Below, one piece after another: positions 5,973 to 7,689 of a stretch of DNA of 64,000 nucleotides. This stretch comes from Escherichia phage ime09: sequence record NC_019503.1; one strand, given 5' to 3'. A program made the position numbers and the translations under genes. Within the stretch, counting starts at the first letter, position 1, and every line of letters starts with the position of its first letter. The notes under the pieces are model-generated. The model was not told the origin of the DNA and made no database searches. It saw only the letters and a program-made list of their open reading frames with translations.

Positions 5973-6266
5973 TTACCATTTATGATAATACATATTTACG
6001 ATGCATTCAAGACCCAAAGGATTCTTGAAAATATCATATTCAAGAGGACCTTTTTCTGTTTCAATAAAGAAATCAAAATTTACTGTATTAAATTTACGGT
6101 CTTCCTTCACTAATTTAACTTGTGAAGATGAACGGTCAATGTAAACCTTTTCAACTTCAAAATATGTTAAAATGCCATAATCATCAATCAAGGCTTTAGC
6201 CGCGTCTTGATCATATTTATATCCATTTTCAATGGATGATACTTTCGCATAAAGAATCATTATCAA
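5973..6266 (-). CDS. hypothetical protein
   Basis: 97 aa ORF between tRNA array and IP-like gene; start overlaps stop of gene above. Confidence 0.45.
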   Translation of the reverse strand: MIMILYAKVSSIENGYKYDQDAAKALIDDYGILTYFEVEKVYIDRSSSQVKLVKEDRKFNTVNFDFFIETEKGPLEYDIFKNPLGLECIVNMYYHKW

Positions 6267-6646
6267 CCTTCATCAACAATAGTGTGCGTATTGGCATTTA
6301 CAATTTGCCACCAATCAAAGCGATTAGAACCATAATCTGGTTTGTTTTCATTTTCTTTGATAATGTCACGGAGTTCATCTTCGGTAGCGGCTTTCGCTAT
6401 TAAATCAGCATATCCACCACGAGGATAATAATTATCACCTGCAAAAAGTAAAAAGTTTGGTTTAATGTTATTGAACTCTTCAAGAGTAATAACTTTTCCT
6501 GATGGTAGTTGAACAATCTCTACATATTTATATCCTAATTTTTGAGCAGCATCTACTGCTTCAAGCAAAGTATCATGAGCCCATCCAATTTGACAACCTG
6601 GCTTTTCCGATGGATTAGCCTGATAATCCGCATACACTTTGTACAT
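6263..6646 (-). CDS. hypothetical protein (start moved to MYKVYADYQ..)
   Basis: ORF 6263-6685; internal ATG at 6644-6646 has AAGGTG RBS 8 nt upstream and abuts the stop of the 6648-6833 ORF. Confidence 0.45.
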   Translation of the reverse strand: MYKVYADYQANPSEKPGCQIGWAHDTLLEAVDAAQKLGYKYVEIVQLPSGKVITLEEFNNIKPNFLLFAGDNYYPRGGYADLIAKAATEDELRDIIKENENKPDYGSNRFDWWQIVNANTHTIVDEG

Positions 6647-6647
6647 T

Positions 6648-6833
6648 CTATTCACCTTTAGAAATTTTATCCATAACGATAGCAATTAAACCAATTAAAA
6701 ATGCTACTACAAGTGAAAACACATTTTCTGCTGTAGTCAATAATCCGCATATAAATCCAACAAACATTGAAAAACTAAAAGCAGAAGCAGAAATTGCAAT
6801 AGCAACATTTCGAATTAATTCACAGCGTTTCAT
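6648..6833 (-). CDS. small hydrophobic (single/double TM) protein
   Basis: 61 aa ORF, mostly hydrophobic; GAGGAG RBS; first gene behind an early-promoter-like element. Confidence 0.4.
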   Translation of the reverse strand: MKRCELIRNVAIAISASAFSFSMFVGFICGLLTTAENVFSLVVAFLIGLIAIVMDKISKGE

Positions 6834-6862
6834 TTTATTCTCCTCAGTAGTTGATAGGGTAA

Positions 6863-6891
6863 TAGTATCACAACTAAAACCCTATGTAAAC
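6863..6891 (-). promoter_or_regulatory. early promoter-like element, -35 GTTTAC / -10 TACTAT, 17-nt spacer
   Basis: GTTTAC at 6886-6891 and TACTAT at 6863-6868 (minus strand), upstream of 6648-6833 gene; part of a repeated cassette. Confidence 0.55.
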
Positions 6892-6903
6892 AACTTTGTG
6901 AAA

Positions 6904-7161
6904 TTATTTTAAATCTTCTAATCGTTTCTTCATCTTAGAACCATTTTTAGCAATTTCTCCTGCATCGGAGCATAACGCTAAAAGTGCTTTAACTTTAGTT
7001 TGGTCTCCTTTAAAAGACGAAGGATCGACTGCAGCAGCAAGTTCTTTAATACGAGAGAAAAGACGCTCAGCTTCAGCTAAAGCCATTCCAAGCTTTACTT
7101 CCATACCGTGAGAAGATTCAGTGATAGTAGTTTTTGTAGCAAACTCTTTGAAAGTTTTCAT
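6904..7161 (-). CDS. internal protein I-like small head protein (IP family)
   Basis: 85 aa; N-terminus MKTFKEFATK resembles the IP capsid-targeting motif; position next to 57B matches ipI in T4; own early promoter. Confidence 0.55.
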   Translation of the reverse strand: MKTFKEFATKTTITESSHGMEVKLGMALAEAERLFSRIKELAAAVDPSSFKGDQTKVKALLALCSDAGEIAKNGSKMKKRLEDLK

Positions 7162-7192
7162 TTTATTTTCCTAATTAATTTTGATGAGATAA

Positions 7193-7221
7193 TAGTATCA
7201 CTACCTCATCAGCATGTAAAC
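7193..7221 (-). promoter_or_regulatory. early promoter-like element, -35 GTTTAC / -10 TACTAT, 17-nt spacer
   Basis: GTTTAC at 7216-7221 and TACTAT at 7193-7198 (minus strand), upstream of IPI-like gene; near-identical to the 6863-6891 copy. Confidence 0.55.
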
Positions 7222-7233
7222 AACTTTGTGAAA

Positions 7234-7689
7234 TTATTTTAAATCGTCTGCCCAATCGAGTTTAAGAGGCTCTTTGTATTCACGATCTAATACGACCGGA
7301 ATTTGTACATCACCGCTAAATGATAAGGGTCCAACATTATAAGACAATGTTATATGCGGTGTGTAATCATCAAAATCATGTGTAGCACCTAGTGCCCGCG
7401 CATACATGTGTCGACAGCGCAGATATTCAGAATCTAGCACAAGTACAAGAGTCGATCCATCTTGTGTTTTCCATACTTCTAAATGTCCAGAAGAAGCTAC
7501 TTCAAAACTTCCACTCGATGGAACATACGGAACATTTACTCTTGAATAACATATGGTCGAATGAATTTTTTCTCTAGGAACTGGATTAGGAACACGTAAA
7601 GAGCGCTGGAGTTCTTCCAGCGCATCAAGTGTTAATTCTGAAAACTTAGCTGCTACATAAAGACCCGTTGAAAAGTCTTTAAATTCCAT
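7234..7689 (-). CDS. 57B: gp57B conserved protein
   Basis: 151 aa ORF immediately 3' of 57A, length and position as in T4. Confidence 0.75.

Follow-up and report, generated by a model that had tools for sequence, protein, structure and literature searches.

The DNA analysed here (the window) is a stretch of 64,000 nucleotides (nt) from Escherichia phage ime09 (record NC_019503.1), and the element in question is the short interval between its transfer RNA (tRNA) genes and gene 57B (positions 5973-7246). Every gene of the interval lies on the minus strand, and the order of transcription is 57A, 57B, ip5, trna.4, trna.3, trna.2 and then the tRNA array. The annotations of RB51, GiZh and T4 show an identical gene order from 57A to trna.2, with ipI in the place of ip5 in T4. 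Positions 5876-7700 have matches in 690 phage records, the best of them, at 98.8% identity, in Shigella phage KRT47. The interval is very probably the ipI-type internal-protein (IP) locus of the T2-, T6- and RB51-like Tequatrovirus phages, a single exchangeable slot whose content changes by recombination at repeated promoter cassettes. A fixed frame, made up of 57B (acb1) on one side and of trna.4, trna.3, trna.2 and the tRNA array on the other, would surround this slot, which in the window holds ip5 alone.

The slot gene and its flanking cassettes

The slot gene, ip5 (6904-7161, minus strand), encodes an internal (injected head) protein of 85 amino acids (aa) that matches PHROG 3499, "internal head protein", with an E value of 1.2e-49. 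The name Ip5 is used in RB51, T2 and RB70, both T2 and T6 carry the protein, and the version in the window is 100% identical to bas37_0261 of phage Bas37. A previous reading of this DNA, made from the letters and their translations (the sequence-only reading), had described the gene as internal-protein-like and had equated its position with that of ipI in T4. Both points hold: the PHROG match and the annotation of the relatives identify the protein as Ip5, and the annotated genomes place ipI between 57B and trna.4, where ip5 is found here. Ip5 starts with the N-terminal capsid-targeting leader MKTFKEFATKTTITE (start MKTFKEFATKTT, MKTFKEF...; pattern MKT[YF]xEF...), and the same leader is present in 59 open reading frames (ORFs) from slots of this type. 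The site of the prohead protease (gp21) is L/I-x-E at the end of the leader; Ip5 has I13-T14-E15, followed by SSHG, and T4 IPI has ITE at residues 17-19. The predicted mature protein is about 70 aa long, and AlphaFold2 yields a two-helix hairpin (helices 17-44 and 54-84, pLDDT 71) behind a disordered leader. The family is tiny, with 5 clusters at 90% identity among 5.8 billion proteins. A paralogue 54% identical to Ip5 occurs at the second IP locus, between the lysozyme gene e and denV (Yersinia phage ZN18, locus L042, 2438-2719), in about 226 phage records, so that one IP family is found at both loci. In ZN18, the paralogue is followed by a related early-promoter cassette, GTTTACTTCC...TGATACTAT...CATCAACTACT.

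On both sides, ip5 is flanked by direct repeats. A repeat search found a 69-nt direct repeat (6851-6919 and 7181-7249, 83% identity), adjoined by a 25-nt direct repeat (6828-6852 and 7156-7180, 84% identity), and the two combined make up the entire intergenic unit, about 95 nt that reach from the final codons of the upstream gene as far as the ATG-AAA of the downstream gene. The 57B-proximal copy, cassette A (7154-7249, minus strand), leads into ip5; the trna.4-proximal copy, cassette B (6826-6919, minus strand), leads into trna.4. The longest exact run common to both is a core of 32 nt, GATTTAAAATAATTTCACAAAGTTGTTTACAT on the minus strand, at 7214-7245 in cassette A and at 6884-6915 in cassette B. 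A 27-nt part of this core occurs exactly twice in the 64-kb window, versus 0 expected from 100 shuffles.

Read on the coding strand, each copy consists of GAT TTA AAA TAA (D-L-K-stop), TTTCACAAAGTTG, TTTACA, a 17-nt spacer, TG-TACTAT, a Shine-Dalgarno (SD) sequence and ATG AAA. The -35 hexamer (TTTACA) and the extended -10 (TACTAT) are at 7215-7220 and 7192-7197 in cassette A and at 6885-6890 and 6862-6867 in cassette B. The core begins at the D-L-K-stop codons and includes the last three codons and the stop of 57B (...WADDLK-stop) in cassette A and those of ip5 (...RLEDLK-stop) in cassette B; the TAA of both genes lies within the AT-rich GATTTAAAATAATTTCACAAAG, 14 nt upstream of TTTACA. At the 3' ends of the cassettes, the SD sequence and start codon are AGGAAAATAAAATG for ip5 and GAGGAGAATAAAATG, with SD GAGGAG, for trna.4. 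The sequence-only reading had rightly placed the D-L-K-stop of both upstream genes inside the shared sequence, and the two near-identical cassettes that it described are real and do carry an early-promoter pattern. However, it had taken them to be about 50 base pairs (bp) long, shorter than the repeats actually are, it had missed the inverted repeat around the -10, and its hexamer register (GTTTAC-17nt-TACTAT) was one base off, since the spacing is 17 nt from TTTACA and 18 nt from GTTTAC.

In the aligned cassettes, this inverted repeat has its 5' arm in the promoter spacer and its 3' arm covering or following the -10. The hairpin of cassette A (7182-7211, minus strand) has 13 bp, TGATGAGGTAGTG-ATAC-TATTATCTCATCA, with the -10 hexamer in the 3' arm and loop, and an RNA minimum free energy (MFE) of -14.8 kcal/mol (z = -5.1 against dinucleotide shuffles). 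That of cassette B, ATAGGGT...ACCCTAT (6854-6885, minus strand), encloses the spacer and the -10 and has an MFE of -13.2 kcal/mol (z = -3.8). The 43 unique cassette cores have a median z of -3.7, with z < -2 in 34 of them. Changes in the arms between cassette classes are compensatory (GAGGTA/TACCTC, AGGGCTAT/ATAGCCCT, AGGGTTAT/ATAACCCT and TAGGACTA/TAGTCCTA), and 70% of the cells are pairable in the -10-centred register, versus 29-57% in shifted registers. The single-register covariation test is only partly clean, there being at least two stem registers and a -3 shifted control with 57% pairable cells, and the z-scores of the individual sequences are the stronger evidence. A terminator scan called no terminator at the cassettes, and no U-tract follows either hairpin. 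On these grounds, the hairpins were rejected as intrinsic terminators.

Both cassettes, with their TG extended -10, fit the PST/T4 early-promoter consensus TTTACW-N17-TAYWAT, which is a consensus match only. This T4-specific pattern is rare in the window and conserved in the relatives, and the annotation of phage Lutter has promoter features at both cassette sites. The predicted promoters would drive immediate-early transcription of ip5 and of trna.4-.3-.2, probably extending into the tRNA array as well. Late expression of ip5 is also to be expected, since Ip5 must be present at prohead assembly. The gene has no late-promoter motif of its own, the nearest on the coding strand being TATAAATA at 8287-8294, inside gene 1, and late expression would most likely come about by read-through from there across cassette A. 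Lacking a U-tract, the cassette hairpins would not stop such read-through. Other early-type promoters of the window are found on the minus strand at 2967, 2627 and 63177, with the pattern TTTACA...TA(C/T)(T/A)AT and, in some cases, a hairpin. Inverted repeats bracket the -10 at about 63140-63177 (GGTACAGG...CCTGTACC) and at about 2590-2627 (ACAGGCTCAT...ATGAGCCTGT), so the promoter-embedded hairpin is not restricted to the IP locus.

Turnover of the slot

The locus had been expected to vary strongly between T-even phages, and the aligned loci bear this out. The sample comprised 36 fetched loci encoding a relative of 57B together with T4, RB51, GiZh and the window; slots were surveyed in the 34 loci anchored on 57B and trna.4, and the survey of junctions covered 34 loci and 5 annotated records. 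In these 34, between 79 and 1663 nt separate the stop of 57B from the start of trna.4, and 0-5 genes lie in between. Nearly all slot genes carry the capsid-targeting leader, and the mature parts of the 59 leader-bearing ORFs fall into 13 unrelated families (blastp E < 1e-4). Mature Ip5, at an identity of at least 90%, is present in about 267 phage records, and the Ip6 type in 231.

How much of the interval takes part in this variation? Compared with T4, identity is 93-100% through 57A, 57B and cassette A, drops to about 80% over the leader codons and to 25-53% over the mature IP block (7132-6889), and is back at 97-100% between the -35 of cassette B and the end of trna.4. It falls a second time, to 38-55%, over the N-terminal half of trna.3 (6648-6436), after which it is 72-100%. 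The "variable island", which the sequence-only reading had extended over all of 5973-7246, is one exchangeable slot (about 6834-7233) and one domain-level allele swap in trna.3, set in a conserved frame; the remainder of the interval does not share in the variation.

Natural haplotypes with both ip5 and ip6, with ip5, with ip6 and with an empty slot differ by clean indels, and the junctions lie inside the cassettes. The window corresponds to the ip5+ip6 haplotype (locus L004, GiZh and Bas37) minus 301 nt, and the alignments on either side share 24 nt, in the -10/hairpin part of the cassette. Locus L035, which has ip6 only, lacks ip5 relative to the ip5+ip6 haplotype but otherwise equals it, and its junction falls within the upstream half of the cassette. 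The slot of phage slur04 is empty, and its single cassette is composed of the 57B-side flank, the 32-nt core and the hairpin and leader of the trna.4 side. This is the predicted crossover product of the two repeats in the window and supports recombination between cassettes. The ip5/ipI replacement has its left limit at the leader codons and its right limit where cassette B starts. Judged by where the junctions fall, the haplotype series directly supports cassette recombination, and the proposal that the repeated cassettes serve as recombination sites stands. The paralogue at the e-denV locus ends in ...RLEKYISGASEK, a different end from the ...RLEDLK of Ip5, which suggests that the last three codons of Ip5 derive from the 57B-type repeat. 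The D-L-K-stop of ip5 is thus best read as a piece of the 3' end of 57B, apparently acquired when the cassette was duplicated. Through the 32-nt exact core, the surrounding 95 nt or so at 83-84% identity and the conserved IP leader codons, the cassettes act as portable patches of homology, which, as the natural variants show, the recombination machinery of T4 uses to delete, insert or replace IP genes. T4 recombines at very short homologies (PMC9391042), so 32 exact bases are ample.

Several observations count against this account or limit its reach. The sequences do not tell whether an event was a deletion or an insertion, nor by which route it came about (intramolecular unequal crossover, mini-circle or replacement during co-infection). 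Some pairs of IP genes have no cassette between them (e.g., loci L011 and L012), and loci L016-L019 lack any cassette matching the search pattern, so the cassettes are not the sole substrate for recombination. A generic sigma-70 scan gave 18 sites versus 16.0 +/- 4.2 in shuffles, that is, no enrichment, and the promoter call consequently rests on the T4-specific pattern, its conservation and the Lutter annotation. Promoter activity and transcription start sites, as well as the packaging and injection of Ip5, are predicted from consensus matches and homology.

Why are the two cassettes so alike? One answer would be that they are independent strong T4 early promoters that owe their similarity to a long consensus and not to a common origin, and that they play no part in recombination. 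Conservation among T4 early promoters extends over about 40 nt, and the early-type promoters elsewhere in the window share the pattern, the element at 2967 also having TTTCACAAAACTGTTTACAT. However, the 32-nt identity extends upstream into two unrelated coding sequences, at the D-L-K-stop, and is found nowhere else in the 64 kb; the similarity also runs on over the leader, SD sequence and start codon, and the indel junctions of the natural haplotypes fall exactly in the repeats. This explanation is largely refuted and must be considered very improbable. A second alternative is that the hairpin is maintained chiefly for what it does in transcription or at the RNA level, attenuating, insulating or stabilising read-through transcripts, with recombination a by-product of repetition. 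The covariation of the arms speaks for a structure of the nucleic acid and against a protein site, the G-T/G-U pairs in the stems favour RNA, and the stem-loop of an RB49 PeSL, an element of similar build, cut downstream lacZ expression like a strong terminator (PMC2839356). With the 3' arm upstream of the predicted start site, the hairpin would form only in read-through RNA or in single-stranded DNA. On the other hand, the missing U-tracts and terminator calls argue against a role of this kind, and ip5, which lacks its own late promoter, probably depends on transcription reading through cassette A. As the main selected role, an RNA-level function is possible but rather unlikely; it is compatible with cassette recombination and does not exclude it.

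A further alternative takes the entire interval 5973-7246, including trna.2, trna.3 and trna.4, as an anti-defence island. The three ORFs of 97, 127 and 61 aa exist as the sequence-only reading gave them, but they are not the unrecognised variable cargo for which they had been taken: they are T4 trna.2, trna.3 and trna.4, syntenic in most 57B loci. Next to 57B, trna.4 is present in 33 of 39 loci, trna.3 in 27 and trna.2 in 25, and the loci lacking trna.2-4 are those of the most distant relatives. The conservation of these genes at this position comes close to the finding that the sequence-only reading had itself named as fatal to it, namely that the same ORFs are conserved in all T4-like phages with known housekeeping functions, although the second half of that condition, a known housekeeping function, does not apply to them. 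In favour of a wider island, the three genes are small, early and, to judge from their Bas37 orthologues, non-essential; they adjoin Acb1 and an IP gene in a region where anti-defence genes cluster (Hobbs et al., PMC9117128), and an arms race could lie behind the different allele in the N-terminal half of trna.3. Yet the presence of trna.2-4 is not variable, their Bas37 orthologues were neutral on both CFT073 and CFE299 (10.1101/2025.11.20.689424), and they belong to a transcription unit that runs into the tRNA array, so that a role in tRNA expression or host takeover is equally possible. It is improbable that the island extends this far.

Recombination at promoter cassettes in a single IP slot is not a new idea. 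PeSLs are defined by an upstream stop in an AT-rich region, -35 and -10 boxes, and an SD sequence and start codon at the 3' end (Arbiol et al. 2010, PMC2839356). Their stem-loop lies mostly between the boxes or overlaps the -10, with G-T pairs, and PeSLs are located at indel junctions and generate mini-circles (PMC2839356). The cassettes of the window fit every one of these criteria that concerns sequence, with a stop in an AT-rich tract, -35 and -10, a stem-loop overlapping the -10 with G-T pairs, and SD and ATG, and, like the PeSLs of RB49/phi1, PST/T4 and nt-1/KVP40, they are found at indels or replacements between close relatives. Arbiol et al. nevertheless class the T-even IP elements as analogues of the RB49 PeSLs and not as homologues, built on T4 early promoters with TTTACA instead of TTGACA and with AT-richer, weaker stems without polyG/polyC. 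Mini-circles and terminator activity are features of the RB49/phi1 PeSLs; the element of the window is known here from sequence alone. According to the same paper (PMC2839356), elements of this kind had been seen in T-even phages by Repoila, Tetart, Bouet and Krisch (1994, EMBO J 13:4181), at both of the highly variable IP loci, and the paper suggests that they explain the shuffling of IP genes. Comeau et al. (2014) restate this account, with the PST/T4 promoter consensus and the IP differences between PST and T4 (PMC4122927). As far as can be judged through these two papers, the elements of Repoila et al. share with those of the window the locus, the leader gene family, the promoter/stem-loop repeats and the proposal of shuffling, and nothing substantive sets them apart. 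The phenomenon has been in the literature since 1994, and the present finding is a correct rediscovery; what it adds is no more than a wider sample (34 loci, 13 families) and a series of four haplotypes set out with their junctions. T4-like phages hold their genome frame constant while exchanging small injected counter-defence genes, and this locus is a textbook example; the exchange affects host range and the design of therapeutic phages.

Ip5 as a candidate counter-defence protein

What might Ip5 do? By analogy with IPI, IP2, IP3 and Bas37_0260, the N-terminal targeting peptide would direct Ip5 into the head, the prohead protease would cleave Ip5 after ITE15, and the trimmed protein would be injected along with the DNA and there counter a defence specific to the host, most probably a type IV restriction enzyme. 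T4 IP1, IP2 and IP3 each inhibit a distinct GmrSD type IV restriction enzyme (PMC12373910), and bas37_0260, one of the two genes in the slot of Bas37, inhibits McrBC (10.1101/2025.11.20.689424, a 2025 preprint). In that slot, Bas37_0260 and Ip5 (bas37_0261) lie side by side. The McrBC inhibitor belongs to the Ip6 family and is absent from the slot of the window, and the possibility that the Ip5 of the window is this inhibitor was rejected. Ip5 resembles T4 IPI*, IP2, IP3 and Bas37_0260 in its targeting leader, small size and locus and differs from them in the mature part, where these proteins form separate families at blastp E < 1e-4. By this measure, the mature part of Ip5 (family F3) has no detectable similarity to the characterised inhibitors, ipI being in F7 and Bas37_0260 in F1. 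A search of PDB sequences gave no match to Ip5 at E <= 0.1, the best E values being 0.76 and 0.96, and sequence searches of Pfam, NCBIfam and PDB gave no functional match for Ip5, Trna.2, Trna.3 or Trna.4.

There is one experimental hint. Transposon insertions in bas37_0261 were depleted on CFT073 (log2 fold change -2.09, adjusted p 0) and not on CFE299 (-0.01), a result given in supplement 8 of the preprint and undiscussed there (10.1101/2025.11.20.689424). Insertions in Acb1 were also depleted on CFT073 (-1.56; same supplement). CFT073, a uropathogenic E. coli, carries a GmrSD homologue, c5421 (PMC4437046). Weighing against a counter-defence role, the depletion of bas37_0261 on CFT073 could be a polar or indirect effect, Ip5 does not appear to block the GmrSD enzymes of ECOR17, ECOR21 and UTI89, and the case for anti-restriction is one of analogy. 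T2 and T6 are restricted by these three enzymes (PMC12373910) although they carry Ip5, so none of the three is likely to be its target. The roughly 4-fold depletion on CFT073, together with the fact that three other occupants of IP loci and Bas37_0260 all proved to be type IV restriction inhibitors, allows a further reading: once injected, Ip5 would inhibit a defence that has not yet been paired with a phage counter-measure, one candidate being c5421 or another system of CFT073. This may be so, although we would place it somewhat short of an even chance. An injected, host-specific counter-defence protein is what these analogies suggest.

The sequence-only reading had seen in the whole island a plausible source of anti-defence proteins. 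This applies to the neighbourhood, where 57B is Acb1 and where IP1, IP2, IP3 and Bas37_0260 are inhibitors; it does not extend to trna.2-4, which take no part in the turnover. The slot is readily located, from the 57B stop to the trna.4 start, and its at least 13 families of injected proteins, mostly uncharacterised, are candidate restriction inhibitors. Ip5, among the commonest of the slot occupants, has an unexplored host-specific phenotype in a public dataset. If Ip5 does inhibit an unpaired defence, the slot next to trna.4 would serve as a general docking site, and new type IV restriction inhibitors could be read off it one genome after another.

Neighbouring genes and the tRNA array

The neighbours that the sequence-only reading had assigned to the island, the tRNA array and 57B, are indeed those found. 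Gene 57B (7234-7689, minus strand) follows 57A (7689-7931, minus strand) and encodes Acb1, an anti-CBASS 2H-phosphoesterase: it matches Pfam PF23474 (Acb1) over profile positions 1-144 of 144 (E 2.6e-60, 202.7 bits versus a cut-off of 27), and its translation shows two HxT motifs, HSTI and HITL, of the 2H phosphoesterase fold. T4 57B has been shown experimentally to be Acb1, a cyclic-oligonucleotide phosphodiesterase, and adjoins ipI in an anti-defence neighbourhood (PMC9117128). The protein of the window is 100% identical to it (tblastn), with no difference detected, and the gene is the fixed left anchor of the slot rather than variable cargo.

On the other side of the slot, the downstream anchor trna.4 (6648-6833, minus strand; PHROG 1692) encodes 61 aa with two hydrophobic segments and is 100% identical to T4 trna.4 at the aa level. 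The next gene, trna.3 (6263-6646, minus strand; 127 aa), is conserved, and its N-terminal half (about 6436-6646) is an allele unlike that of T4. The last, trna.2 (5973-6260, minus strand; PHROG 2023), is conserved as well, with 95% aa identity to T4 trna.2; its 97-aa form starts at a TTG at 6266, and the reference genomes annotate the 95-aa form with the ATG at 6260. All three proteins match established PHROGs of unknown function. Some close relatives have an extra 171-aa ORF between tRNA-Gln and trna.2 (e.g., bas38_0257 of phage AugustSocin, locus L041, 687-1202). This ORF accounts for insertions of about 500 nt in two-piece matches to positions 5876-7700 and amounts to presence/absence variation at the distal end of the interval too.

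Beyond the tRNA array, two further genes on the minus strand start with an IP targeting leader, one at 3125-3688 (187 aa, MKTYAEFLTEA) and one at 3814-4287 (157 aa, MKSYAQFLNEA). Repeats are found here at 4329-4368, 3770-3809 and 3083-3122, and on either side of the 157-aa gene there is a copy of a 40-nt direct repeat (93% identity) made up of a GC-rich hairpin and a T-run. The late-promoter motif TATAAATA (4328-4335) comes after the upstream copy. These repeats are a different type of cassette, a terminator with a late promoter, again flanking IP-type genes.

Within positions 1-9000 of the window, tRNAs were the sole RNA families found by Rfam at gathering thresholds. The array (5044-5875) consists of ten tRNA genes, with no gene for a homing endonuclease among them. 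In T4, segB is inserted in an array of eight tRNAs, and the array of RB51 contains a different endonuclease ORF. The gene called tRNA-Met (CAT) by ARAGORN in the array of the window is annotated as a tRNA-Ile with a CAU anticodon in RB51.

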